From the UHGV virus genome UHGV-0089979: DNA of 17,711 nucleotides; one strand, 5' to 3'. Below the pieces are notes generated by a model that was not told where the DNA came from, did no database searches, and saw only the letters and a program-made list of their open reading frames with translations. Numbering within the stretch: the stretch's first letter is position 1; every line of letters begins with the position of its first letter. This DNA comes from a virus. Of the stretch, positions 50 to 17,060 are shown piece by piece. Made by a program: the position numbers and the translations under genes.

Positions 50-1363
50 CTAACCCACTGATTTTAATAAGTCTCTTGTGTCACTTTGGTGACCATGGGA
101 CATCATTGGGACATAATCTGCCAGCTTCTGATTCAGCATTGCGATCTGTTCTGCATTACTGTCAGTCATCCATGCTCCGTATACATTGAATACCATCTGG
201 GCACTTGCATGGCCCATCTGGCTGGCAATGAAGCTTGGGTTTGCTCCGGCAGATAATGACCAGCACGCATAAGTGTGTCGTGACTGGTATGCTTTCCGGT
301 GCCTGATGCCCGCACGCTTAACGGCTGTTTCCCATGAGTCGCCAATAGAATCTACCTTGTAGATAAAACCGACCTGTTTGCTTTTTCTAACCACCTGGGG
401 GTTAAATACGAAAGTACATTCATGATTCACTGAGCGCCCATATTCACGTAGTTGAACCTTGATGTGGTGCTGCTTACCCAGTCTTGTCATTTCAGCCTGA
501 TTTTTCAGGACACTGATAGCGGGCTGGATAAGATGCACAACCCTGTTTGTACTTGCTTCAGTTTTAGGTAGAGTGAACTCACTGAGTTTCGTATAATTGC
601 GCCTGATAGTAATAGTTCCTGCTTTCAGATCGATATCCTCCCAGGCCAGGGAGACCAGTTCACCGTGACGCATTCCTGTGTACACAGCCAATGACCACAG
701 GTTTTTCGTCTGCTGATGTCGGCAAGCATCTATCAGGCGAATAAATTCGTCACGAGTTAGTGGATCTGGCTCTGCCCTGGCTCTTTTAAGAGGCTTAATT
801 CCCTGGAAGGGATTTGCTTCTAAGTAACCGTGATCTGCAGCAAACTGAAACATTCCAGCGATAGTTGTCATGTAATAATTTACAGTAACGACGCTCCGTC
901 CTTTTGCTGCTGCTTTGTTTTTCGTTGAATTCTGACACCCGGTCAGTAAATCTTTCCTGATATACAGCAATTCCTCTTTGGTTACCGATGACACCAGTCT
1001 GCTGCCTCCAATTTTCGGAACCATCGTTCTTGCAACGGATTCATAGCGATTGAATGCATTTGCAGAGATTTCCATTCGTTTCAGATCCAGCCACTTTTCT
1101 TCAAGTTCCTTCACCGTAATTTCTTTTTTACTTACCCCAAAAGCCTGAAGGTTGGGGGAGTCAGGGAACTGTGCAGCATAATCAAAGCTTCCTGTGCGGA
1201 TGGCAAAACATACCGATGTCCTCAGTTCCCCGGCGATCTTCCTGTTCTTGGCAGTGTCAGGGACACCAAGATTTTCCCTGACACGTTTACCTTTAAAATT
1301 AAACCAGATGCGTAATGTGCCGCCGTGGTTTTCGACGCCTGTTGGATATTTGACTTTATCCAT
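50..1363 (-). CDS. int: Phage tyrosine integrase (437 aa), resembling Rac-prophage IntR-type integrases
   Basis: ATG at 1363 preceded by GGAGGT. N-terminal arm-binding-like region (KYPTGVENHGGTLRIWFNFKGKRVRE) and C-terminal catalytic region (LAVYTGMRHGE...HTYACW...VYGAWM with the terminal tyrosine) are typical of lambdoid integrases. Family resemblance is from memory. Confidence 0.85.
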   Translation of the reverse strand: MDKVKYPTGVENHGGTLRIWFNFKGKRVRENLGVPDTAKNRKIAGELRTSVCFAIRTGSFDYAAQFPDSPNLQAFGVSKKEITVKELEEKWLDLKRMEISANAFNRYESVARTMVPKIGGSRLVSSVTKEELLYIRKDLLTGCQNSTKNKAAAKGRSVVTVNYYMTTIAGMFQFAADHGYLEANPFQGIKPLKRARAEPDPLTRDEFIRLIDACRHQQTKNLWSLAVYTGMRHGELVSLAWEDIDLKAGTITIRRNYTKLSEFTLPKTEASTNRVVHLIQPAISVLKNQAEMTRLGKQHHIKVQLREYGRSVNHECTFVFNPQVVRKSKQVGFIYKVDSIGDSWETAVKRAGIRHRKAYQSRHTYACWSLSAGANPSFIASQMGHASAQMVFNVYGAWMTDSNAEQIAMLNQKLADYVPMMSHGHQSDTRDLLKSVG

Positions 1364-5198: not shown

Positions 5199-5370
5199 CG
5201 TCATCAATACTCGCGTCGCTCCTGAATTTAAGAGCGATGCTCTTTATATCCTCTGAAATTATTACCAGATCACCATATGTTATATTTTTATTATTGCGCG
5301 CAGTGCTTTTTTGTATGAAATCAAGCAATTCACCAATGAGACAAATATGGTAAGCATTACAGTTTTTCAT
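5128..5370 (-). CDS. Hypothetical protein (80 aa), second gene of the two-gene operon downstream of cI
   Basis: The ATG at 5370 overlaps the TGA of the upstream HTH gene (ATGA at 5370-5367), indicating translational coupling. Track ORF 5128-5412 trimmed to this ATG. Confidence 0.45.
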   Translation of the reverse strand: MKNCNAYHICLIGELLDFIQKSTARNNKNITYGDLVIISEDIKSIALKFRSDASIDDAIYAYLAKIIDGSKIQPLDEPRQ

Positions 5371-5828
5371 GCGCAGATATCCTTTGCTGCCGTTTCGCCA
5401 GTTAACAGCCACATCGCATCGCAGCCAAGAATATTTGCCAGTGGGATAAGCATACTGATAGTTGGTTCATACTCTCCGCTCTCCCACTGGATGATAATTT
5501 CTTCATCGAGATCGAGCAGCCTGGCGAGTTCGGCGGTTGTTAAGCCGCAGGCTTCGCGTTGGGTGCGAAGGTTAACCAGCCAGCTTTCAGGGAAGGATTG
5601 TTTTTGTTGCGCAGGAGAAGCAGCAGATAGAGCATATTCATGGATAAATTCCATTACCTCAATGCCCAGTTCCTTTGAGCGAGCACAATCCAGAAGATGG
5701 AATGTGCGTACAGCACTTAGCAAATTTGCAATATTTAATGCAAAGGAATCAAGTTCTAAGCCCTTAAGCGTAACACAGCCGCAGTTGATAAAATTAGTTG
5801 TTTCTGGAGTTGCTTTTAGTGTCTTCAT
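5367..5828 (-). CDS. XRE-family helix-turn-helix protein (153 aa from the ATG) with an unassigned N-terminal domain
   Basis: The C-terminal segment LRTQREACGLTTAELARLLDLDEEIIIQWESGEYEPTISMLIPLANILGCDAMWLL is a typical Cro/C1-type HTH. The track start at 5858 is a TTG; the first ATG is at 5828. Driven by its own promoter (5882-5910). Confidence 0.6.
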   Translation of the reverse strand: MKTLKATPETTNFINCGCVTLKGLELDSFALNIANLLSAVRTFHLLDCARSKELGIEVMEFIHEYALSAASPAQQKQSFPESWLVNLRTQREACGLTTAELARLLDLDEEIIIQWESGEYEPTISMLIPLANILGCDAMWLLTGETAAKDICA

Positions 5829-5881
5829 ATATCCGCCAACAATTTTAAATTGAATCAAATCAAGTTATAATTGATGGGGCG

Positions 5882-5910
5882 ATATTATGTTTTGGGAAAT
5901 AGCCTGTCAA
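5882..5910 (-). promoter_or_regulatory. Near-consensus sigma-70 promoter for the two-gene operon 5828-5128 (-35 TTGACA, 17-nt spacer, -10 TAATAT); pL-like by position
   Basis: On the minus strand TTGACA lies at 5910-5905 and TAATAT at 5887-5882 with exactly 17 nt between. An imperfect palindrome ATCAAgttataaTTGAT (5859-5875) sits at the predicted transcription start. Confidence 0.5.
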
Positions 5911-5940
5911 GAAAAAATTGATATCGTATATTTCAGGCAG

Positions 5941-5961
5941 AAAAAAAACGGGCAAAGCCCG
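5941..5961 (-). terminator. Rho-independent terminator just downstream of cI (minus-strand hairpin CGGGC-TTT-GCCCG followed by eight T)
   Basis: Plus strand shows A8 (5941-5948) then cgggc-aaa-gcccg (5949-5961); read on the minus strand this is a GC stem followed by a U8 tract, starting 14 nt after the cI stop codon. Confidence 0.65.
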
Positions 5962-5974
5962 TTAAAATCAAAGA

Positions 5975-6664
5975 CTAACCAAATCTGTTTATGTTGAATG
6001 GTACTGATGAGATCACTTTAGACTGGATATAAAGCAGAGCTAACCCCTCTTTTTCGATGCTCCATGGTTGATAATTGGGGTTATCAGATAACACCATGAT
6101 TTTGCTTCCAATTTTTTGAAGCCTTTTCACGTAGCATTCTCCATCAAAACAAAATGCATAAATACCATCGCCATCAAAATAAGTTACTGTCTTATCAAGA
6201 AAAAGAAGGTCGCCAGGTGAGATTGTGGGAGCCATACTGTCTCCTCTGGCGTTACCTATTTCTATATTTTTGAATGCCCGATTTCCAACAAGACGTCGGG
6301 CATATTCAGGATCAAGTTCTATTGAGCGCACTACATCTATCAAGTCACCACGGACATGAGTTCCATCACCGCAACTAAACTCAACATCAAGGACATTAAA
6401 CACGACGCTATCTGTTCTTGTCTGGTGTTTCTCTTGCGAGGAAAAGGTTGGTGAGGAGTCTTCACCTAAGAACCAGGATTGTGGATAACCGCTAATCTCT
6501 GATAAATGCGCGAGCTTATCACTCCGTGGAAATGTTTTTCCTGTTGTCCAGTACTGCACTGATTGCGCACTCACACCTAACTTGCGGGCCAGTTGAGCCT
6601 GAGTCCATCCTTTTGCTTTCAGCATCGCGGCTATTCGATTTTCCGTGTTTTTGACGTTCTTCAT
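5975..6664 (-). CDS. cI: cI-like prophage repressor: N-terminal XRE HTH plus C-terminal S24 (LexA-like) autopeptidase domain (229 aa from the ATG)
   Basis: HTH segment AAMLKAKGWTQAQLARKLGVSAQSVQYWTTGKTFP; C-terminal GDSM (Ser nucleophile) and a downstream YVKRL (Lys) as in LexA/cI. The track start at 6670 is a TTG; the ATG is at 6664. Divergent from the cro-like gene. Confidence 0.85.
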   Translation of the reverse strand: MKNVKNTENRIAAMLKAKGWTQAQLARKLGVSAQSVQYWTTGKTFPRSDKLAHLSEISGYPQSWFLGEDSSPTFSSQEKHQTRTDSVVFNVLDVEFSCGDGTHVRGDLIDVVRSIELDPEYARRLVGNRAFKNIEIGNARGDSMAPTISPGDLLFLDKTVTYFDGDGIYAFCFDGECYVKRLQKIGSKIMVLSDNPNYQPWSIEKEGLALLYIQSKVISSVPFNINRFG

Positions 6665-6797
6665 GACCAAATCCTGTGGGTTTCTTTACAAGGATAAATC
6701 TTTACTTGATTTTAGTGTATTCGATCCTTTTGTAACTTGCATGTTAATTTAAACTTGATGTATTCTTGATTTATAAAGTTAATATTGGTGCTTTGTT
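6665..6797. promoter_or_regulatory. cI/cro divergent control region (oR/pR/pRM-like) with three copies of a CTTGAT(TT) motif
   Basis: 133-bp AT-rich intergenic region between divergent repressor and cro-like genes. CTTGAT occurs at 6705-6710, 6754-6759 and 6765-6770, and the same motif recurs at the promoter near 5859-5875. Confidence 0.5.
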
Positions 6798-7088
6798 ATG
6801 GAAGGAAATGATTACGACAAACTTCGTGCATTAATTGCGCAAAATGCCATAGCGCGAAATCTTGGTGTGACGCCGCAAGCGGTGAATCAGTGGTTTTCAA
6901 AAAGCACAATTCCTGCTCGTTTCGTTTTACGAGTATGTGAAGTAGTTGCATGGAAGGTTACGCCTCATGGCTTAAGGCCAGATCTTTATCCTCACCCTGA
7001 AGATGGAATTCCTAACTTGTTACGCAAAAGCCTAAATCCAAGTTCACCACACAGAGCGGATGGAATACACGCAGGAGATAAACAATGA
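6798..7088 (+). CDS. Cro-like small DNA-binding regulator (96 aa), resembling YdaS-type Cro proteins of lambdoid prophages
   Basis: Divergent from cI; the motif LGVTPQAVNQW...IPARFVLRVCEV...LRPDLYP resembles the YdaS/Cro-like family (from memory); its stop overlaps the next gene start (ATGA). Confidence 0.7.
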   Translation: MEGNDYDKLRALIAQNAIARNLGVTPQAVNQWFSKSTIPARFVLRVCEVVAWKVTPHGLRPDLYPHPEDGIPNLLRKSLNPSSPHRADGIHAGDKQ

Positions 7089-7792
7089 ACATCGCAATTT
7101 TTAACGGCAAAGTATCCATGACCAGCGTTGAAATTGCAGAGCTGGTGGGTAAACGTCATGACAATGTGAAACGCACTATTGAAACATTAGCCAAAGGTGG
7201 CGTTGTCCGGTCTCCTCAAATTGAGGTTTCCGAAAGAATCAATAACTTAGGTTTTAAAGTTCAATATGAGCATTACCTGTTTGAAGGAGAACAAGGTAAG
7301 CGCGACAGCATCATTGTCGTCGCACAGCTCTGTCCTGAATTCACTGCTCGCCTGGTAGATCGCTGGCGCGAACTGGAAGAACAGATCCGTAAGCCAATGA
7401 GCGAAATCGAAATGGTTGCCGCGATGGCTCTTGAAGCAGTTCGTCAGCAGAAACGGATCACTCAGGTGGAAGAAAAAGTCAGCCACGTTGCCGAAACAGT
7501 TGAGCAAATCAAAAAGGGCACCATTCGTGAGGGCTATGCCGGATATCGCCAACTGAAAGCGAAAACCGGTTTGTCAGATGATAAATGCCGCAATCTGGTG
7601 AACGCTTATCAAATTCCTACAGACACCCATGAGTTCATGACGCCGGACGGATTGTTGTCACGTCGCGCAATTGTTGCTGTGGAACCGTTTATGGCTGCTT
7701 TTTATCGGGTTATGGAGGAAGCAGAACCGCGAGGGACTCGCTGGTATCACCCGAAAATGGGGTTATTTCAGGTTATTGGTTGGCAGCGGTGA
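7085..7792 (+). CDS. Rha-family phage regulatory protein (235 aa)
   Basis: The N-terminus MNIAIFNGKVSMTSVEIAELVGKRHDNVKRTIETL matches the characteristic Rha N-terminal signature (from memory). Confidence 0.7.
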   Translation: MNIAIFNGKVSMTSVEIAELVGKRHDNVKRTIETLAKGGVVRSPQIEVSERINNLGFKVQYEHYLFEGEQGKRDSIIVVAQLCPEFTARLVDRWRELEEQIRKPMSEIEMVAAMALEAVRQQKRITQVEEKVSHVAETVEQIKKGTIREGYAGYRQLKAKTGLSDDKCRNLVNAYQIPTDTHEFMTPDGLLSRRAIVAVEPFMAAFYRVMEEAEPRGTRWYHPKMGLFQVIGWQR

Positions 7793-7816
7793 AAAAAAAG
7801 CCGGGAGTAACCCGGC
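7792..7816 (-). terminator. Rho-independent terminator oriented for leftward transcription (GCCGGG-agtaa-CCCGGC stem with T8 on the minus strand)
   Basis: Plus strand: A8 (7792-7799) then gccggg agtaa cccggc (7800-7816). Only the minus-strand orientation has the U tract. It abuts the Rha stop codon. Confidence 0.5.
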
Positions 7817-8015
7817 TCACTCAACATCAATAACGGGGAGCTGTTTCGCATAAAACGGTTCCGAAACATCCAAGAACAGTTCTAAAGATATCAGCAGCTA
7901 TATGATCATTTCAAGACCAAATATTGATTCTGCAATTTCGGGACGTTACACTGTTCAGGCACCTTATAAAGCGGGTGCCGGGATTTGCACCCCGGAATTG
8001 CATACGGCGATATAT

Positions 8016-8035
8016 GACGCGCCAGCGTCTTTTTT
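8016..8035 (+). terminator. Rho-independent terminator on the plus strand (GACGC-gcca-GCGTC followed by TTTTTT)
   Basis: Seen directly at 8016-8035; it lies inside the N-terminal part of track ORF 7902-8564, arguing that this part is non-coding. Confidence 0.5.
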
Positions 8036-8201
8036 ATCGTTCATGCTCGCGCACGCCAGAATTATGGTGGGCTGGGCAGGGGAGCCGAAAGGCTCGCCGG
8101 TTTCCGTATGCGCCGGTAGTGCAAACCCTGTTCAGTCCGCCACCAGCGAGATTTGCACCTCCGGTGGTGGAAGTTATCCATTGCATACGGAGGCTGCCAT
8201 C

Positions 8202-8564
8202 ATGGCTACAGTCCCAACTTCCCCATACCTGAAAATTGAAGTTGTCAACGGCAAGGCCGTTATTTTCTCCCTGCATGTTGCCTGCCACTTTAAGCGCATG
8301 CACCAGAACATCGTCGACAAAATCGAGTATCTGAACTGCTCACGCGAGTTTTTTACCCGCAATTTCATACCGGGTACTTATCACATCTACGGTGACTCCC
8401 TGCGTGGTTATTACATCACCCTTGATGGTCTGATGATGCTTCAGCTTGGGTTAAGTCTGCGCACAATGCGGTACTACGAGAGCTGCATTGAAGCATTCCA
8501 TGAGGCTGAGACCAACCTGAATCACACTGTTTTCCGTCGTAATCAATGGGAGGTGCGCCCATGA
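8202..8564 (+). CDS. Hypothetical phage protein (120 aa); possible regulatory or antirepressor-like N-terminal domain
   Basis: Track ORF 7902-8564 trimmed to the ATG at 8202, which is preceded by GGAGG at 8-nt spacing. The upstream part contains a terminator and repeats and has no ribosome-binding site. Function not confidently assigned. Confidence 0.45.
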   Translation: MATVPTSPYLKIEVVNGKAVIFSLHVACHFKRMHQNIVDKIEYLNCSREFFTRNFIPGTYHIYGDSLRGYYITLDGLMMLQLGLSLRTMRYYESCIEAFHEAETNLNHTVFRRNQWEVRP

Positions 8565-10074: not shown

Positions 10075-10965
10075 ATGTTTGAACAGTTAAAAAAACACTA
10101 CGCACAACACGACAAAGCGCAATTGCTCAACCGCAGGGCGGAACTGGAGGAGGAGATGCAGTTTGCCCGTGCCGGGAAGCGCCCGTGGCGCTGTGAACAC
10201 TGGCTGACAAGCGAGGAAACTGCTGAGTGTGAGAAACACGGGAAATACGCACGTCTGGTGTTGAAAGGGCCTGATGTTCGTGGGGAAACCATCAAACGGG
10301 TTTCTGGTTGCCCGACCTGCATTGCGAATGAACTGGATCAGGTACAGGAGGCGTTACGCATCCTGAAAGTTCATGAATTACTCGACAGGGCTGGTATTGC
10401 CCGCCGCTTCCAGAACTGCGAGTTTGAGAATTATCAGGCGGTGAATGCTGACGCACAGAGAAATCTTGAGGCTTGTCGGCGCTATGCCGGCTCATGGGAG
10501 AAGTGTCTTGCTGCGGGTACCAGCATGATCATGATTGGCAATTGCGGTACCGGGAAAAATCACCTAGCTGTATCAATGGCAAAAAATATTATTCACCACC
10601 ACCTGGCGACTGTCGAAATTACGGATGTCATGCGACTGACCCGCGCTGTGAAAAATACCTGGCGTCACAATTCTGAACGCACTGAAGATGAAGTTATTGA
10701 CCATTTTGTATCGCTGGACCTGCTCATCATCGATGAGGTTGGTGTGCAGTTCGGTACGCCAACAGAGATAACCATCTTGCAGGAAATCATCAATGCACGT
10801 TACGAAAGCGTTTTACCGACAATTTTGATCAGCAATCTGACGTTTGACCAGCTTAAGGAGTCCATTGGTGAACGAATTGTGGATCGCGTTACTGATGGTG
10901 GGCGTAATTGCCTGGTGTTTGGTTGGGAAAGCTACCGTGTACATATCAGAGGTGTGGCAGCATGA
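10075..10965 (+). CDS. DnaC/IstB-like AAA+ helicase loader (296 aa)
   Basis: Walker A GNCGTGKNHLAVS and Walker B LLIIDEVG; N-terminal Cys cluster; immediately upstream of the DnaB-like helicase. Confidence 0.85.
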   Translation: MFEQLKKHYAQHDKAQLLNRRAELEEEMQFARAGKRPWRCEHWLTSEETAECEKHGKYARLVLKGPDVRGETIKRVSGCPTCIANELDQVQEALRILKVHELLDRAGIARRFQNCEFENYQAVNADAQRNLEACRRYAGSWEKCLAAGTSMIMIGNCGTGKNHLAVSMAKNIIHHHLATVEITDVMRLTRAVKNTWRHNSERTEDEVIDHFVSLDLLIIDEVGVQFGTPTEITILQEIINARYESVLPTILISNLTFDQLKESIGERIVDRVTDGGRNCLVFGWESYRVHIRGVAA

Positions 10966-12362
10966 CAAACCAGACAAATCCGGCGTGGCGTAATGATGAC
11001 CTGGAAGGCGCTGTCATTGGTGCGTTTTTTCTGCGAGGGGCAGATCATGAAGTGATGGATATTCTGGCCACGCTTCCGGCGGATGTCTTTTTCGTGCGTC
11101 AGTACAGGGATATTTACGCGGGGATTTGCAGACAGGCCCGCGTATCCGGCGTCATTGACCCCGTGCTGCTGTGCAATGAGATGCCGGAACTTGCCCCGGT
11201 GATTACAGACACCGGGCGTAAAACCTGGGTGAAGTCTTCACTGGAGCACTATGTTGCAGCCTTGCGTCGCAATGCCGCACTGCGTGATGCAGAAAAGACG
11301 CTGAATGAGGCGTTGCAGAAATTACGTGATGCGCATACCTGTGAAGCAGCTGAAGATGCCCTGAAGGATGCGCAGAAAATGATGGCCTCATTGTCGACGG
11401 AAAAGGGCGTTATTCAGCCTGTTCACATTGATGATGTACTTCCGGAAGTGGTCGACCGTGTTGAATGCCGGAATCAGGGACTGGAGAAATCCAGAACGCT
11501 GATGACCGGTATTGATGAACTGGACGCAAAAACAGGCGGCATGGAGCCCGGCGACCTGGTATTTATTGCGGCTCGTCCGTCAATGGGCAAAACCGAACTG
11601 GCGCTGGACATCATCGACAAGGTGACTGAGCAGGGGCATGGCGTGCTTCTGTTCACCATGGAGATGGCGAACATCCAGATTGGTGAACGTATGGTGTCTG
11701 CTGCCGGTGGAATGCCGGTATCCCGTCTTAAGTCTGTTGCCCGTTTTGAAGACGAAGACTGGGCACGCTTCTCACAGGGTGTGGGACGAATGACGGGGCG
11801 TAATATCTGGATGGTGGACCAGGCAAACCTGACCATTGATGAGATATGTGCAACCACGAAGCACCACCGGATGAAACATCCGGAAACGGCGCTGGTGGTG
11901 GTCGATTACCTCGGCCTGATTAAAACCCGCAGCACGGGGCGTCACGACCTTGCGGTGGGGGAAATCTCAAAGGGACTTAAAAGCCTGGCAAAATCCGGCG
12001 GTTTTCCGCTGATTGCTCTGAGCCAGCTCTCCCGCGGCGTGGAATCCAGACCCAATAAACGCCCCATGAACTCGGACCTGAAAAACTCCGGGGAAATCGA
12101 GGCGGATGCCGACATCATTCTGATGCTTTACAGGGATGAGGTATACAACCCGGAAACGCAGGCCGGAGGCATAGCAGAAATCAACATCACGAAACAGCGT
12201 AATGGCACGCTCGGGACCATTTACCGGCGTTTTCATAACGGACATTTTCTGCCTGTGGATCAGGAAAGCGCACAGATTCTTTCCACCCCAATGCAGCAGC
12301 CTCAGCCGCGCAGATACAGCAACAAACGAACTGACAGCAGTAAGATGGAGCGTTTCTTTTGA
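10962..12362 (+). CDS. Replicative DNA helicase, DnaB family (466 aa from the ATG at 10962)
   Basis: Walker A ARPSMGKTELAL, DnaB-like C-terminal motifs (ALSQLSRGVESR, ADADIILMLYRDEVY). The ATG at 10962 overlaps the upstream stop and follows GAGGTG; the track start at 10908 is less likely. Confidence 0.9.
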   Translation: MTNQTNPAWRNDDLEGAVIGAFFLRGADHEVMDILATLPADVFFVRQYRDIYAGICRQARVSGVIDPVLLCNEMPELAPVITDTGRKTWVKSSLEHYVAALRRNAALRDAEKTLNEALQKLRDAHTCEAAEDALKDAQKMMASLSTEKGVIQPVHIDDVLPEVVDRVECRNQGLEKSRTLMTGIDELDAKTGGMEPGDLVFIAARPSMGKTELALDIIDKVTEQGHGVLLFTMEMANIQIGERMVSAAGGMPVSRLKSVARFEDEDWARFSQGVGRMTGRNIWMVDQANLTIDEICATTKHHRMKHPETALVVVDYLGLIKTRSTGRHDLAVGEISKGLKSLAKSGGFPLIALSQLSRGVESRPNKRPMNSDLKNSGEIEADADIILMLYRDEVYNPETQAGGIAEINITKQRNGTLGTIYRRFHNGHFLPVDQESAQILSTPMQQPQPRRYSNKRTDSSKMERFF

Positions 12363-12373
12363 ACAACCAGACA

Positions 12374-12616
12374 ATGACTTTTACCCCTGAACAATTACGT
12401 AAACAGGCACAGGAAATGTTGCGACAGGCGGAACAACTGGAAAAAACAGGTGTAACAAAAGATGCCATTCGTCGGGATATGGTGCCAGCGCTCAGGGAAC
12501 TGATGCAGGCAAAACATCGCGCACAAAAAGCAGTGGATGAGCTGGTGGACTGTGTGGCAGAGCTGGAAACCAAAGTTGGAAAGTTTGAAAAACTGGTGCA
12601 GGAGGTACTGCGCTGA
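12374..12616 (+). CDS. Hypothetical small coiled-coil protein (80 aa)
   Basis: ATG at 12374 (the track start at 12359 is a TTG overlapping the helicase stop); its stop overlaps the Q-like start. Confidence 0.5.
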   Translation: MTFTPEQLRKQAQEMLRQAEQLEKTGVTKDAIRRDMVPALRELMQAKHRAQKAVDELVDCVAELETKVGKFEKLVQEVLR

Positions 12617-12963
12617 TGCGTGATATGTACGAAGTTTTAGATCGTTGGGGGGCTTGGGCTGCAGCAGAAAATAGTGGTGTCGACTGGCAGCCGATAGCGG
12701 CTGGTTTCAAGGGGCTTCTACCACACGGTAAAAAGTCACGTCTCCAGTGCGATGATGATGAAGGAATTATGATTGATGGATGTGTGGCCCGGTTGCGGAA
12801 ATATAAACCAGAAGAATATGAGCTGATCATTGCTCACTTTGTTATCGGGATTTCACTCCGTACAATCGCAAAGAAGCGGAAATGCTCGGATGGAACTATT
12901 AGAAAGGAGTTGCAAACTGCACTTGGATTTATTGATGGTATTATGTGTATTCTAAATAGATAA
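12616..12963 (+). CDS. Short antitermination protein Q-like (115 aa), resembling the DLP12 QuuD type
   Basis: MRDMYEVLDRWGAWAA...AAGFKGLL...CDDDEG..DGCVARL...SDGTIRKEL..GFIDG matches my recollection of the roughly 127-aa QuuD family; C-terminal HTH-like segment. Assignment from memory, not a search. Confidence 0.6.
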   Translation: MRDMYEVLDRWGAWAAAENSGVDWQPIAAGFKGLLPHGKKSRLQCDDDEGIMIDGCVARLRKYKPEEYELIIAHFVIGISLRTIAKKRKCSDGTIRKELQTALGFIDGIMCILNR

Positions 12964-12993
12964 AAACAGCCTTGGTCCAGATAATAAAACTTA

Positions 12994-13659
12994 TTATTTT
13001 CTGGACTTTGCTGTTCTCGCACTTTTGTCTTTAGGTGCAAATCCCAATATTACAGCGAAATGTCTTACTTTGTATGGTAATCCAGATTTAGGGTGTTTGT
13101 GGCTAGAGTAAAAGCTCAACTTTTCTCTTGTTTTGCAATCGGATAAATAAAAATCTTCAAAGTCATCTTTTTTAGAGGTTAATGTTTTTTTCCATTTCTC
13201 TACGACATCTAATGCATTGTTGCTTTTCACATAAATTATTAATCCTCCTTGACAATCATCTTCACTTCCTGTGGAGTAACGAGAGCATAATTGATGGAAT
13301 CCTTCCATTAAATAGTCGTATGAGCTATGAATTTTAGCCTCTCCAATCCATGTGTAGTTTTTGAAACTTACAACAATGTCTGAGTGCCCATTTATATAAT
13401 TATCATGACCAGAATCATATCCGAAGCCAATTAGTATATTAATTATTTCTATAGATAAACGGTCTTCTCCATCGTTTTGCATTAAGCTTGCATTTTTTTC
13501 AATCAATCTGATTGTTTTTTCTAAGTCAATATAAAACATTTCAATAAATTTATCGTATGAATTGCATGTAATTCTTCGATAAAGGCGTGCTGCGCTCTCA
13601 TCGAATGACGCTGCGAACTTCAGCGATTCTAACGTAAAATTATTCTGATTATCCATCAT
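12994..13659 (-). CDS. Cassette gene C: hypothetical protein (221 aa from the ATG at 13659) with a PD-(D/E)xK nuclease-like signature
   Basis: The ATG at 13659 overlaps the TGA of gene B (ATGA). Motif string GHSDIVVSF...TWIGEAKIH...HQLCSRY fits the D...ExK core. AT-rich coding sequence. Confidence 0.6.
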   Translation of the reverse strand: MMDNQNNFTLESLKFAASFDESAARLYRRITCNSYDKFIEMFYIDLEKTIRLIEKNASLMQNDGEDRLSIEIINILIGFGYDSGHDNYINGHSDIVVSFKNYTWIGEAKIHSSYDYLMEGFHQLCSRYSTGSEDDCQGGLIIYVKSNNALDVVEKWKKTLTSKKDDFEDFYLSDCKTREKLSFYSSHKHPKSGLPYKVRHFAVILGFAPKDKSARTAKSRK

Positions 13660-14048
13660 TCTAGGCCTTTCCAGAACTCTGATGCATAAAAGTAAATGTA
13701 AACTTTCGACTGCCAATTGAGGACTGGTTTGCCATCGAAATAGAATGTTCCTTCTGAATATATTTTGCTTAACTCATCTTGAGAGATTTCAAAAATGTCA
13801 TCACCATCAATATATTCGTATCCGATTGATAATATTGGTGCTTTTTCTCCAGATAGATAAGTAATTGCCTCGTAAAGGATACTTTGATCAACATTACTGA
13901 CTTTTTGCAAGTTATTGAATGTTATATATTTTAAATTATCCAGATCTTCATTAAGCAGGTAATGATAAATATTCATACATGCAAAACCAACTTTGCTGTC
14001 GGTAGCAAAAGAATGTTGTATGATATCTTTCATTTCCTGCTTATTCAT
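13656..14048 (-). CDS. Cassette gene B: hypothetical protein (130 aa)
   Basis: ATG at 14048 directly follows the TAA of gene A (TAAATG); AT-rich; no recognisable motif. Confidence 0.65.
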   Translation of the reverse strand: MNKQEMKDIIQHSFATDSKVGFACMNIYHYLLNEDLDNLKYITFNNLQKVSNVDQSILYEAITYLSGEKAPILSIGYEYIDGDDIFEISQDELSKIYSEGTFYFDGKPVLNWQSKVYIYFYASEFWKGLE

Positions 14049-15101
14049 TTAGAAAACCTTTGACATCAATAACTCATAATCTGATTTACAAACACACCCT
14101 TCGATTATAACATGATTTATAAATGGTAGCGAGGATGAAATTAAAGAAAAATGTCCGGGTACATGCATTGTTAAAATATTATTGTGTGCTCCATTCCATT
14201 GTTTAGAAATACTAAAGTTATTAGTTTTCCCTCCAATTGCCGCTAAGCCTGCGGCATGATATTTTTCCTTCCTTAAATCATCTTTTCTCTTTCTCATTTT
14301 TTCTTCTTTTACTGAGCCTGTTCCTGTGGCATGCCCAAGTTTTAAAATGGTACCATCGGCAGATTTGTAAAGTTTATCGATAGCAGTAAATATATTTTTT
14401 CTAATGAAGGCGACGTGATATGAATTCTCTTTATGGAAAAGGTACATTAATATTCTGCGATATCTTGTTGATGCGCGCTCCAATTCATTGTGGTTAAGAT
14501 TTGTACACATGTCGATTTCAAATGTTATTTCGCCGGAAACATAGTTAAAAGTAATTGTGTCAAAACATTGGATGTATCTATCTTTTATTCCAATTATTTC
14601 ATCAAAACAATTGAGTTCTTTTTGTGTTGCTGGGCTTAGTGTATTTGTTTCAATTGCACTTCTTTCTTTGAATGGACGAAGATAAGTTGTTGTAATAGTG
14701 ATCGAGTTACCATGTTGAGAGTGGGAGATGCAGACTGGTCTTAATTTTTTGACTTTTTTATGTGTTGCGCTATCTATTGGCAATGGGTAGGTGGCAATGT
14801 ATTCTTGATAATCTTTATCGTTGCTGTTAATCAGATTTAACAAGGTTTTTTTCAAGAGGATTGCGTCAGTGATATTATTCAGTTGAGCAAAAAATACGGC
14901 CCGATTGCTGTAATTCAATTGGCTGAGGTAAATCTCCTTGAGATTATTTATTATATCCTTTTCATTATTACTTGCATAATCAGATAGCAACTCTGTCCAC
15001 CCCCTAGCTGACTTCATATTAAAATACTTTAATTCGCCTTGAAGAAGCCTGAAAGAGATGTTTCTTGCCTGAAGACCAAACAGGTAGTCGTTCGCTTTCA
15101 C
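14049..15101 (-). CDS. Cassette gene A: hypothetical protein (350 aa, GTG start)
   Basis: First gene of the AT-rich leftward operon. The GTG at 15101 is preceded by AAAGG and an in-frame TAA two codons upstream; the first in-frame ATG is at residue 29. No family recognised. Confidence 0.65.
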   Translation of the reverse strand: MKANDYLFGLQARNISFRLLQGELKYFNMKSARGWTELLSDYASNNEKDIINNLKEIYLSQLNYSNRAVFFAQLNNITDAILLKKTLLNLINSNDKDYQEYIATYPLPIDSATHKKVKKLRPVCISHSQHGNSITITTTYLRPFKERSAIETNTLSPATQKELNCFDEIIGIKDRYIQCFDTITFNYVSGEITFEIDMCTNLNHNELERASTRYRRILMYLFHKENSYHVAFIRKNIFTAIDKLYKSADGTILKLGHATGTGSVKEEKMRKRKDDLRKEKYHAAGLAAIGGKTNNFSISKQWNGAHNNILTMHVPGHFSLISSSLPFINHVIIEGCVCKSDYELLMSKVF

Positions 15102-15140
15102 TAGTCGTTACCTTTTACCTTTAGAATTAGAGAAAAGTTA

Positions 15141-15169
15141 AATATACAAAAGAGCTAACGCGTACGCAA
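15141..15169 (-). promoter_or_regulatory. Candidate sigma-70 promoter for the leftward cassette (-35 TTGCGT, 17-nt spacer, -10 TATATT)
   Basis: On the minus strand TATATT lies at 15146-15141 and TTGCGT at 15169-15164 with 17 nt between; the -35 is weak. Confidence 0.3.
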
Positions 15170-15217
15170 AAGTTATTGTAATGTGTTAAGAGTGGTTACT
15201 TTGCCACACAGCTTAAA

Positions 15218-15240
15218 CCCGCGCTGAGCGGTTTTTTTTT
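15218..15240 (+). terminator. Terminator-like element on the plus strand (short GC stem CCGC-gctga-GCGG followed by nine T)
   Basis: Stem 15219-15222 pairs with 15228-15231, followed by T9 at 15232-15240. The stem is short, so strength is uncertain. Confidence 0.45.
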
Positions 15241-15711: not shown

Positions 15712-16761
15712 ATGATTAATACTGTAAAAATATCCAGTTGTGAGTTAATCAACGCTGATTGCCTGGAGTTTATCCAGACCTTACCGGAAAACTCTGTCGA
15801 TCTGATAGTCACAGACCCGCCATACTTTAAAGTGAAGCCCGAGGGCTGGGATAACCAGTGGGAGGGCGACGATGATTACCTGAAATGGCTGGACCAGTGT
15901 CTGGCGCAGTTCTGGCGGGTACTGAAGCCTGCCGGAAGTCTTTACCTGTTCTGTGGTCATCGCCTGGCATCTGACACCGAAATCATGATGCGTGAGCGCT
16001 TTAATGTGCTGAACCACATTATCTGGGCGAAGCCGTCCGGACGCTGGAACGGGTGCAATAAGGAAAGTCTGCGGGCGTATTTTCCGGCAACAGAGCGCAT
16101 TCTGTTTGCAGAACATTATCAGGGACCGTATCGCCCGAAAGATGATGGCTATGTGGAGCAGGGGCGCGAGCTAAAACAGCACGTCATGGCCCCGCTGATT
16201 TCTTACTTTCGTGATGCGCGTAAATCACTGGGAATAACGTCAAAACAGATAGCGGAAGCCACCGGAAAGAAAAACATGGCTTCGCACTGGTTTGGTGCCA
16301 GTCAGTGGCAGTTACCGAACGAGGGTGATTACAATAAATTGCAGGCGTTGTTTGCGCGTGTTGCGGCAGAAAAACATCAGCGCGGGGAACTGGAAAAGCC
16401 ACACCACCAGCTGGTCAGCACATACAGTGAGCTGAACCGGCAGTATACGGAACTGCTGAGTGAATATAAAAATTTGCGGCGGTATTTCGGTGTGACGGCG
16501 CAGGTTCCGTACACCGATGTCTGGACGCATAAACCGGTGCAGTACTATCCAGGGAAACATCCGTGCGAAAAACCGGCAGAAATGCTGCAGCAGATAATCA
16601 ACGCGAGCAGTCGTCCGGGAGACCTGGTTGCAGATTTTTTTATGGGTTCAGGTTCAACGGTAAAAGCGGCGATGGCACTGGGGCGTTGTGCGATTGGTGT
16701 TGAGCTGGAGACCGGACGTTTTGAACAGACAGTCAGGGAAGTTCAGGATTTAATCGTTTGA
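15712..16761 (+). CDS. DNA methyltransferase, beta-class (N6-adenine or N4-cytosine), 349 aa
   Basis: N-terminal DPPY motif (VDLIVTDPPYF) and C-terminal AdoMet-binding motif (DLVADFFMGSGST), the circularly permuted order of beta-class amino-methyltransferases such as YhdJ. Confidence 0.85.
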   Translation: MINTVKISSCELINADCLEFIQTLPENSVDLIVTDPPYFKVKPEGWDNQWEGDDDYLKWLDQCLAQFWRVLKPAGSLYLFCGHRLASDTEIMMRERFNVLNHIIWAKPSGRWNGCNKESLRAYFPATERILFAEHYQGPYRPKDDGYVEQGRELKQHVMAPLISYFRDARKSLGITSKQIAEATGKKNMASHWFGASQWQLPNEGDYNKLQALFARVAAEKHQRGELEKPHHQLVSTYSELNRQYTELLSEYKNLRRYFGVTAQVPYTDVWTHKPVQYYPGKHPCEKPAEMLQQIINASSRPGDLVADFFMGSGSTVKAAMALGRCAIGVELETGRFEQTVREVQDLIV

Positions 16762-16810: not shown

Positions 16811-16886
16811 GGCCCTTTAGCTCAGTGGTGAGAGCGAGCGACTCATAATCGCCAGGTCGCTGGTTCAAATCCAGCAAGGGCCACCA
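16811..16886 (+). tRNA. tRNA with anticodon CAT, 76 nt including CCA; closely resembles E. coli tRNA-Ile2 (ileX-type, read as Ile after lysidine modification)
   Basis: Cloverleaf built by hand: acceptor stem GGCCCTT/AAGGGCC, anticodon loop CTCATAA (CAT at 16844-16846), T-arm GGTTCAAATCC, 3' CCA. Search tools would probably call it Met. Confidence 0.85.
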
Positions 16887-16893
16887 TCACATA

Positions 16894-16970
16894 CCGCCAT
16901 TAGCTCATCAGGATAGAGCGCCAGCCTTCGAAGCTGGTTGCGCGGGGTTCGAGTCCTCGATGGCGGTCCA
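16894..16970 (+). tRNA. tRNA-Arg, anticodon TCG, 77 nt including CCA
   Basis: Acceptor stem CCGCCAT/ATGGCGG, anticodon stem CCAGC/GCTGG with loop CTTCGAA (TCG at 16928-16930), T-arm CGGGGTTCGAGTCCTCG, 3' CCA. Confidence 0.8.
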
Positions 16971-16983
16971 TTATCTGTACCCT

Positions 16984-17060
16984 GCGTTGTTAGCTCAGCC
17001 GGACAGAGCAATTGCCTTCTAAGCAATCGGTCACTGGTTCGAATCCAGTACAACGCGCCA
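16984..17060 (+). tRNA. tRNA-Arg, anticodon TCT (reads AGA), 77 nt including CCA
   Basis: Acceptor stem GCGTTGT/ACAACGC, anticodon stem ATTGC/GCAAT with loop CTTCTAA (TCT at 17018-17020), T-arm TGGTTCGAATCCAGT, 3' CCA. Confidence 0.85.

Follow-up and report, generated by a model that had tools for sequence, protein, structure and literature searches.

A predicted PD-(D/E)xK endonuclease as candidate effector of a mobile three-gene operon in a lambdoid prophage of Escherichia coli

The virus genome UHGV-0089979, 17,711 nucleotides long (the window, by which we mean this whole 17.7-kb stretch), is a portion of a lambdoid, Shiga-toxin-type prophage of Escherichia coli, and it raises a simple question. 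Between a Q-family antiterminator gene and a DNA methyltransferase gene, and antisense to both, lie three closely packed open reading frames (ORFs), here named A, B and C, whose products are all labelled 'hypothetical protein' in RefSeq. What might such a cassette do? An initial annotation, made from the letters alone, had proposed that C carries the motif set of a PD-(D/E)xK nuclease and that it would be a plausible effector for the cassette. Here, we examine the motifs, the predicted fold and the conservation of C, the genes that accompany it in other genomes and the site that the cassette occupies in this prophage. On balance, we favour the view that C is a metal-dependent PD-(D/E)xK endonuclease and the effector of a mobile anti-phage (superinfection-exclusion) moron operon composed of A, B and C.

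Active site and fold of C

The reading frame of C is open over positions 12994-13716 of the minus strand, with ATGATG at 13659 as its likely start, and RefSeq holds an identical coding sequence of 221 amino acids (aa). The relevant features are the following:

12994..13659, minus strand: gene C, last gene of the operon; 221 aa, predicted PD-(D/E)xK fold, WP_000969103.1
13276..13380, minus strand: codons of the predicted catalytic block D94...E107-A-K109...Q123-x3-R127-Y128 (strands 2 and 3 and the next helix)
13465..13467, minus strand: codon of E65, in a GEDRL motif at the N-terminus of the core helix (from conservation and the model)
13561..13659, minus strand: codons of C residues 1-33, two short predicted helices (10-17 and 21-30), missing from the NACHT-HEAT-C fusions described below

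Both segments singled out by the initial annotation are present in the translation, GHSDIVVSFKNYTWIGEAKIH at residues 91-111 and HQLCSRY at residues 122-128. Its count of 13 residues from the aspartate to the ExK motif is exact (D94 to E107, with ExK being E107-A-K109), and the Q-x4-Y that it recognised runs from Q123 to Y128 on helix 114-128 of the structural model. It had placed the aspartate at the end of a hydrophobic strand, whereas in the model D94 stands just before strand 95-99, in the usual 'PD' position. The signature of C includes a further acidic residue, E65, on the preceding helix, which is likely the fourth residue of the active site; we take it to be analogous to E77 of BamHI. 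The loose form of the motif, D-x(8-30)-[DE]-x-K, turns up in 92% of shuffled sequences with the composition of C, and for that reason the bare motif is weak evidence. An aspartate followed by three hydrophobic residues, together with ExK, is found in 14% of such shuffles, and the complete composite, including Q-x(3-4)-Y, in 0.6%. Because the motif by itself is weak, the case for a nuclease has to be carried by conservation and structure.

The homologues of C form 35 clusters among the 5.8 billion clusters searched, none of them with a Pfam domain. In the first alignment, of 32 sequences, the invariant residues are E65, D66, G91, D94, W104, G106, E107, A108, K109, G120, F121, Q123, L124, R127 and Y128. 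Wider scans recovered 87 C loci from 185,579 genomes, taken one per species, and 51 from IMG/VR. Throughout 115 distinct sequences and 42 distinct viral-contig sequences, E65, D94, E107, K109, Q123, R127 and Y128 are invariant (E65 is kept in 113/113 and 42/42), and among about 150 distinct homologues the motif residues hold down to ~26-30% identity. Positions beside the motif vary: G106 can be replaced by A, A108 by S or C, and D66 by N, T or E. The invariance of ExK in the genome-scan set is partly circular, because the search pattern contained GEAK; the viral scan also employed a second pattern, GFxQL..RY, that is free of ExK, and ExK is present in 42/42 distinct viral sequences, some of which were fetched by the ExK-free pattern. 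The conservation that a nuclease assignment presupposes is borne out in the sets of 32, 115 and 42 sequences alike.

An AlphaFold2 model of C, made from the 32-sequence alignment, has a predicted local distance difference test score (pLDDT) of 92.5 and a predicted template-modelling score (pTM) of 0.87. Along the chain, it has a helix at 65-78 that begins with E65, a strand at 82-84, a strand at 95-99 directly preceded by D94, a strand at 102-110 that bears E107 and K109, a helix at 114-128 that bears Q123, R127 and Y128, and a strand at 137-144. This is the alpha-beta-beta-beta-alpha-beta restriction-endonuclease core that the initial annotation had anticipated, a mixed sheet of four strands with helices on its flanks, and the active-site layout of the superfamily is present in it: an aspartate that starts strand 2, ExK on strand 3 and a glutamate on the upstream helix. 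The initial annotation had named two outcomes as fatal to its idea, a structure without this core and motif residues that vary among homologues, and neither was observed. The top structural matches of the model are the Type IIP enzymes BamHI, OkrAI, BstYI and BglII. We are highly confident that C has this fold with an intact active site, which in the model would consist of E65, D94, E107 and K109 within a BamHI-like core.

The full E...D...ExK set, invariant in ~150 sequences, argues for catalysis, the closest folds of C are DNA endonucleases, and its partners are DNA-related as well (an RdgC-fold protein and an HsdR-like translocase, see below). It is quite improbable, in our judgement, that C has kept the fold as a catalytically dead binding module or that it acts on RNA as an RNase, even though some PD-(D/E)xK domains are inactive or are RNases. 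We expect C to be an active nuclease with DNA as its substrate.

C represents an unclassified, new family of predicted nucleases within the PD-(D/E)xK superfamily. Searches of Pfam and NCBIfam gave nothing significant for A, B or C, and Pfam searches over every member of the three alignments gave scattered chance matches only; in PHROGs, the three proteins fall only in families of 'unknown function' (9664, 11490 and 12777). A profile search of C against all PDB sequences returned no relatives, and for membership of the Type II restriction-modification (R-M) or BamHI-like enzymes no sequence homology was detectable. The RecB/Cas4/lambda-exonuclease branch, defined by QhxxY (Q-x3-Y) and by closest structural likeness, was rejected as a home for C, which has Q-x4-Y.

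Partners of C in the operon and beyond it

The other two genes of the cassette, together with the most conserved segment of A, are located as follows:

13656..14048, minus strand: gene B; 130 aa, acidic (isoelectric point, pI, 4.5), WP_001041173.1
14049..15101, minus strand: gene A; 350 aa, pI 9.2, predicted RdgC/RexA/CENP-L-type fold, WP_000646552.1
14256..14336, minus strand: residues 256-282 of A, GHATGTGSVKEEKMRKRKDDLRKEKYH, its most conserved segment in the alignment

The TAA of A abuts the ATG of B, and the TGA of B overlaps the ATG of C (ATGA), so that A-B-C is a single translationally coupled operon. The same order on the same strand recurs in 60 of the 71 non-redundant bacterial loci that have enough upstream sequence and in every viral contig with room upstream (45/45), and wherever a stand-alone C has upstream room, its immediate upstream neighbour is B. 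The taxa that carry C include Enterobacterales, Pseudomonas, Acinetobacter, Xanthomonadales, Burkholderiales, many Alphaproteobacteria, many Cyanobacteria, Bacteroidota and one Terriglobia metagenome-assembled genome (MAG). A-B-C is a rare (~0.05% of species) but widely transferred module.

Some genomes have combined the parts of this module differently. In eight full-length cyanobacterial loci, as well as in incomplete ones, proteins of 1000-1200 aa start with a NACHT nucleoside triphosphatase (NTPase), continue with HEAT/PBS-lyase repeats and end in the C domain, and B is lacking (such loci include L038, L039, L040 at 5295-8543, L042, L046, L047 and L049, and the partial L026, L032 and L044). 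PADLOC recognises these proteins by HEAT-repeat models only, and they look like an unclassified family resembling the nucleotide-binding leucine-rich-repeat receptors (NLR-like). The fusions cover only positions ~34-215 of the C hidden Markov model. Since residues 1-33 are present in stand-alone C and missing in the fusions, they are a candidate docking segment for B. In a Sphingopyxis MAG (L064, 541-8462), C follows a 1167-aa Type I HsdR-like protein that bears a C-terminal B domain (E 1e-16) and matches HSDR_N, SWI2/SNF2 and T1R_D3, and also REase_I in PADLOC. Two ORFs precede them on the same strand, one of 844 aa that is a probable methyltransferase by its NPPF motif and one of 496 aa; the locus has the appearance of a Type I R-M-like operon into which a B-C nuclease module has been taken up. 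In an expanded variant (L069, 3302-8435), B-C is preceded by an A-like protein of 523 aa, extended at its N-terminus, and by an additional 540-aa gene, for which there was no Pfam or PADLOC match.

Because of the NACHT-HEAT-C and HsdR-like::B fusions, C can be viewed as a portable effector and B as a portable docking domain. The earlier suggestion that C is a plausible effector for the cassette gains support from the fusions with NACHT-HEAT and from the position of C behind an HsdR-like protein with a B domain, and we judge it probable that C serves as effector in a conflict or defence system. The surroundings of A-B-C in other genomes are consistent with mobile or defence islands: tyrosine integrases are the nearest neighbour in 9/113, resolvases and recombinases are also found, and the other neighbours include MmeI-type enzymes, PD-T4-6-like kinases, MkoA-like and RmrA-like proteins, a UvrD helicase and an SNase gene.

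The same gene order could also be read as a toxin-antitoxin (TA) or addiction module, in which C would be the toxin, B the antitoxin and A a regulator or accessory; instead of sensing phage directly, it would stabilise the prophage or island, and it could still cause abortive infection as a secondary effect. Such a module would accord with a B that is small, acidic and translationally coupled just upstream of C, that accompanies every stand-alone C, and that occurs in a mobile-element context. However, a 350-aa RdgC-fold A is kept with B-C in 60/63 stand-alone cases and in 45/45 viral loci, which is atypical for type II TA, and the NACHT-HEAT-C fusions carry the nuclease without any B. Moreover, B also occurs as the C-terminal domain of an HsdR-like translocase, as one would sooner expect of a docking domain than of a labile antitoxin, and neither a helix-turn-helix (HTH) nor a known antitoxin family was detected in B. 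We consider an addiction module an unlikely explanation.

An exhaustive phmmer search with B yielded 101 cluster representatives, nearly all of them stand-alone proteins of 125-145 aa, and neither Pfam nor the profile search of all PDB sequences revealed a relative. In the accessible part of the DefensePredictor tables for the E. coli pangenome, WP_001041173.1 is listed as a 'Predicted novel defense gene' (PMC13092281, Table S10), with a mean log-odds of 6.28 and no HHblits or Foldseek match to known defence proteins (PMC13092281); this listing is a prediction only. None of the three RefSeq accessions occurs in any paper text.

The candidate for the sensing role is A. Its model (pLDDT 89.1, pTM 0.87) was built from a 14-sequence alignment; a further homology search seeded with the A alignment added only one sequence. 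At E < 0.001, Foldseek matched it to RdgC structures only (1.2e-5 to 3.1e-4), and RdgC was its top and sole significant structural match by two independent methods; the base and centre domains of the RdgC fold are both found in the model. The Pfam RdgC family had no match in any of 17 A homologues, and a profile search of A against all PDB sequences found no relatives. In residues 256-282, ten positions (T259, S263, K265, E267, R270, D275, L276, R277, E279 and H282) are unchanged throughout 17 sequences that reach down to 21% identity; the segment is a strongly charged strand-loop-helix with a moderate local pLDDT (75-83), is not known to match any motif, and is possibly a DNA- or partner-binding element. 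A shares with RdgC its fold and its basic character (pI 9.2), but is ~50 residues longer and has this invariant charged motif of its own. RdgC modulates RecA-dependent recombination, and crystallography has shown that the lambda exclusion sensor RexA shares an RdgC-type fold (PMC11077077). Our literature searches for RdgC-like defence components turned up the RexA work alone. RdgC is a DNA-binding protein that forms rings or horseshoe-shaped dimers and binds DNA non-specifically; for A, the basic pI is an indirect hint in this direction. We regard A as a candidate sensor that would bind DNA.

Insertion site of the cassette

The position of the cassette within the prophage bears on what it could be for. 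The window is laid out as follows:

50-1363, minus strand: integrase
5975-6670, minus strand: cI-like repressor
10908-12362: DnaB-type helicase, the last of the replication genes
12616-12963: Q-family antiterminator
12964..15161, no single strand assigned: the whole A-B-C cassette, ~2.2 kb, from the Q stop to the conserved, presumed pR'/tR' region
15712-16761, strand opposite to the cassette: DNA methyltransferase

The guanine-plus-cytosine (GC) content of the cassette is 33.7%, versus ~51% in both flanks. The match to cassette-free prophages breaks off at the end of Q and picks up again at ~15162, and the conserved segment to the right of the cassette terminates in a hairpin followed by a T-run (15216-15240); to judge by its position and sequence, this segment is presumably pR'/tR'. 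The site between Q and pR' is vacant in the Shiga toxin 2 (Stx2) prophage of strain P15-385 (L089, 2758-2974) and is occupied by an antisense ompC porin gene in ETEC1749 (L090, 1700-3439). As relatives have either nothing or ompC at this position, the site is a variable one and the cassette a moron. At an identity of at least 99%, it was present in 23 of 5426 complete E. coli genomes and in seven Stx1a-converting phages of O145:H28; the prophage backbone is matched by 3733 E. coli records, the whole region by only 17. Promoter and terminator consensus scans across the cassette gave no excess over the shuffled expectation.

Many database entries for the E. coli A, B and C proteins are partial. 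A large share of them stop where a contig stops, so that short-read assemblies may often break in the cassette or in the prophage sequence around it. In the complete genome C311 (H14), two of the three cassette genes are annotated.

The site has a bearing on the idea that the cassette benefits the phage through its DNA metabolism, with A as an RdgC-like recombination modulator and C as a structure-specific nuclease for prophage replication and recombination or against host defences. The role of RdgC in RecA-dependent recombination (PMC11077077) would fit this idea, as would the frequency of the family on viral contigs (51 loci) and the location of the cassette beside the replication and Q genes in the window. 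Nonetheless, the cassette lies on the strand opposite to the early and late operons, its GC content is foreign, and it is dispensable, the site being vacant in close relatives and the carriers being the 23 of 5426 E. coli genomes just mentioned. In addition, most copies are chromosomal, in diverse phyla and beside integrases or defence genes, and the reuse of the nuclease domain with NACHT-HEAT and HsdR-like proteins follows the architectures of conflict systems. We regard a function in phage DNA metabolism as improbable.

A methyltransferase gene 600 nt from the cassette also invites a Type II R-M interpretation, in which C would be the restriction half and the product of 15712-16761 its modification partner, and the structural resemblance of C to BamHI, OkrAI, BstYI and BglII agrees with it. 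The methyltransferase gene, however, is part of the phage backbone. Its GC content is 51%, it is encoded on the other strand and beyond pR'/tR', and it is retained where the Q-pR' site is vacant or ompC-bearing. As a backbone gene found in thousands of genomes without the cassette, it is not the modification partner of C. In other taxa, A-B-C has no conserved methyltransferase neighbour, and in the seven O145:H28 Stx1a phages (e.g. LC567819.1, L142 6095-9724) the cassette sits between Q and stx1A/stx1B, which it abuts with no methyltransferase between. The pairing was rejected on the grounds that the methyltransferase is a backbone gene that occurs without the cassette, and we consider a Type II R-M role for C very improbable.

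Downstream of the methyltransferase gene there are three tRNA genes (16811-17060), an arrangement also found in related prophages (L006 and L089). ARAGORN assigns them to Met(CAT), Arg(TCG) and Arg(TCT), and RefSeq calls the first one tRNA-Ile, presumably on account of a lysidine-modified CAT anticodon.

A candidate defence system and its known relatives

The reading that we favour, in which C is the nuclease effector of a mobile anti-phage operon, can be stated as a mechanism. A, a basic protein on the RdgC/RexA scaffold, would monitor DNA, which might be linear phage DNA that enters the cell or an intermediate of replication or recombination. B, small and acidic, would tie C to this sensor through the N-terminal helices of C and hold it silent. 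Upon sensing, C would be licensed, probably by dimerisation as in BamHI-like enzymes, and would cut DNA, with the result that the invader is destroyed or the infection aborted. Both the defence phenotype of A-B-C and its trigger are predicted from these arguments. More generally, we tentatively suggest that A-B-C may represent an unrecognised anti-phage class with an RdgC/RexA-fold DNA-encircling sensor, in which a B of ~110-130 aa plugs C onto varied DNA-tracking sensors. Equally tentatively, these sensors could be RdgC-fold proteins in most bacteria, an HsdR-like protein in Sphingopyxis and, by direct fusion, NACHT-HEAT proteins in cyanobacteria. The specific sequence of sensor, adaptor and nuclease steps given above is the more speculative part of the proposal.

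Several results weigh against this reading and should be set beside it. The apparent enrichment of defence genes near A-B-C is modest. PADLOC-DB 2.0.0 has no firm model for A, B or C; A had no match there, B had a marginal one to CARF3 (E 0.007) and C a marginal one to PDC-S54 (E 0.0086) over residues 53-164, the nuclease core. No sequence-level tie connects A, B or C to any validated defence family, and A and C had no match in the readable portion of the DefensePredictor tables. A resembles RdgC in structure alone, where the global TM-score is low (0.35-0.40), and hhalign comparisons of the A profile gave no sequence signal with either E. coli RdgC (probability 0.3%) or lambda RexA (probability 0.1%). 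As for B, it is a candidate adaptor whose role is deduced from gene order and one fusion.

PDC-S54 itself is a single-gene candidate of 410 residues, and C aligns to its positions 258-369; it may be a distant relative with the same nuclease domain.

The PD-(D/E)xK fold is already known, as is the general logic of a sensor paired with a restriction-fold nuclease. The libraries and papers that we searched describe neither the families of A, B and C nor a partner of RdgC fold, a portable adaptor such as B or the lack of an ATPase or methyltransferase, and A-B-C is a candidate new defence system. If this is correct, the PD-(D/E)xK superfamily gains a family that Pfam, NCBIfam and PADLOC models do not see, and a defence architecture would exist without ATPase or methyltransferase, with an RdgC-fold protein as its apparent sensor. 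The RdgC/RexA scaffold would also acquire a second and more tractable immune context, with a nuclease read-out and not membrane depolarisation, and the recurrence of B and C with HsdR-like and NACHT-HEAT proteins suggests that effectors may be coupled to sensors by a general rule. The Stx-converting phages of O145:H28 have the cassette between their late antiterminator gene and stx1, and superinfection exclusion could affect the spread of particular Stx phages through pathogenic E. coli; A-B-C may also shape the competition among them. The proposal can be tested with one 2.2-kb clone and three point mutants.

How, finally, does A-B-C compare with known systems? With the BamHI-like Type IIP enzymes, C shares the core fold, the order of the acidic residues (helix E, strand-2 D, strand-3 ExK) and a similar size, about 200-220 aa. 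It differs from them in sequence, being only 9-11% identical to BamHI, OkrAI, BstYI and BglII, in its conserved operon that lacks a cognate methyltransferase, in being always paired with B and usually with A, and in two features of the protein itself, an additional N-terminal helical segment and a family-specific invariant GFxQLxxRY helix. The sensor-NTPase-effector layout of the STAND/NLR-like proteins (NACHT, Avs-type) is shared by the cyanobacterial NACHT-HEAT-C proteins; C of E. coli, in contrast, is stand-alone, in an operon without an NTPase.

The proposed logic, in which a nuclease is licensed by a separate DNA-monitoring partner and there is no methylation-based self-marking, resembles that of Hachiman (HamA nuclease and HamB helicase), McrBC (McrC) and NucC. 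Unlike these, A-B-C has no helicase or ATPase, and the partners of C are an RdgC-fold protein and a candidate adaptor of 130 aa; the PADLOC models for Hachiman, McrBC and CBASS had no match in A-B-C.

The last comparison is with lambda RexAB. RexA is not among the top structural matches of A, and the cassette lies outside the immunity region. The effectors differ as well, C being a soluble nuclease and RexB a membrane protein; no transmembrane-like segment was detected in A, B or C (maximum Kyte-Doolittle score, KD(19), 1.43). Nonetheless, both systems are encoded by prophages, and A and RexA alike resemble RdgC and the IML3/CHL4 (CENP-L/N) scaffold (PMC11077077). The parallel is a conceptual one: in both, a DNA-sensing protein of RdgC fold would trigger an effector.

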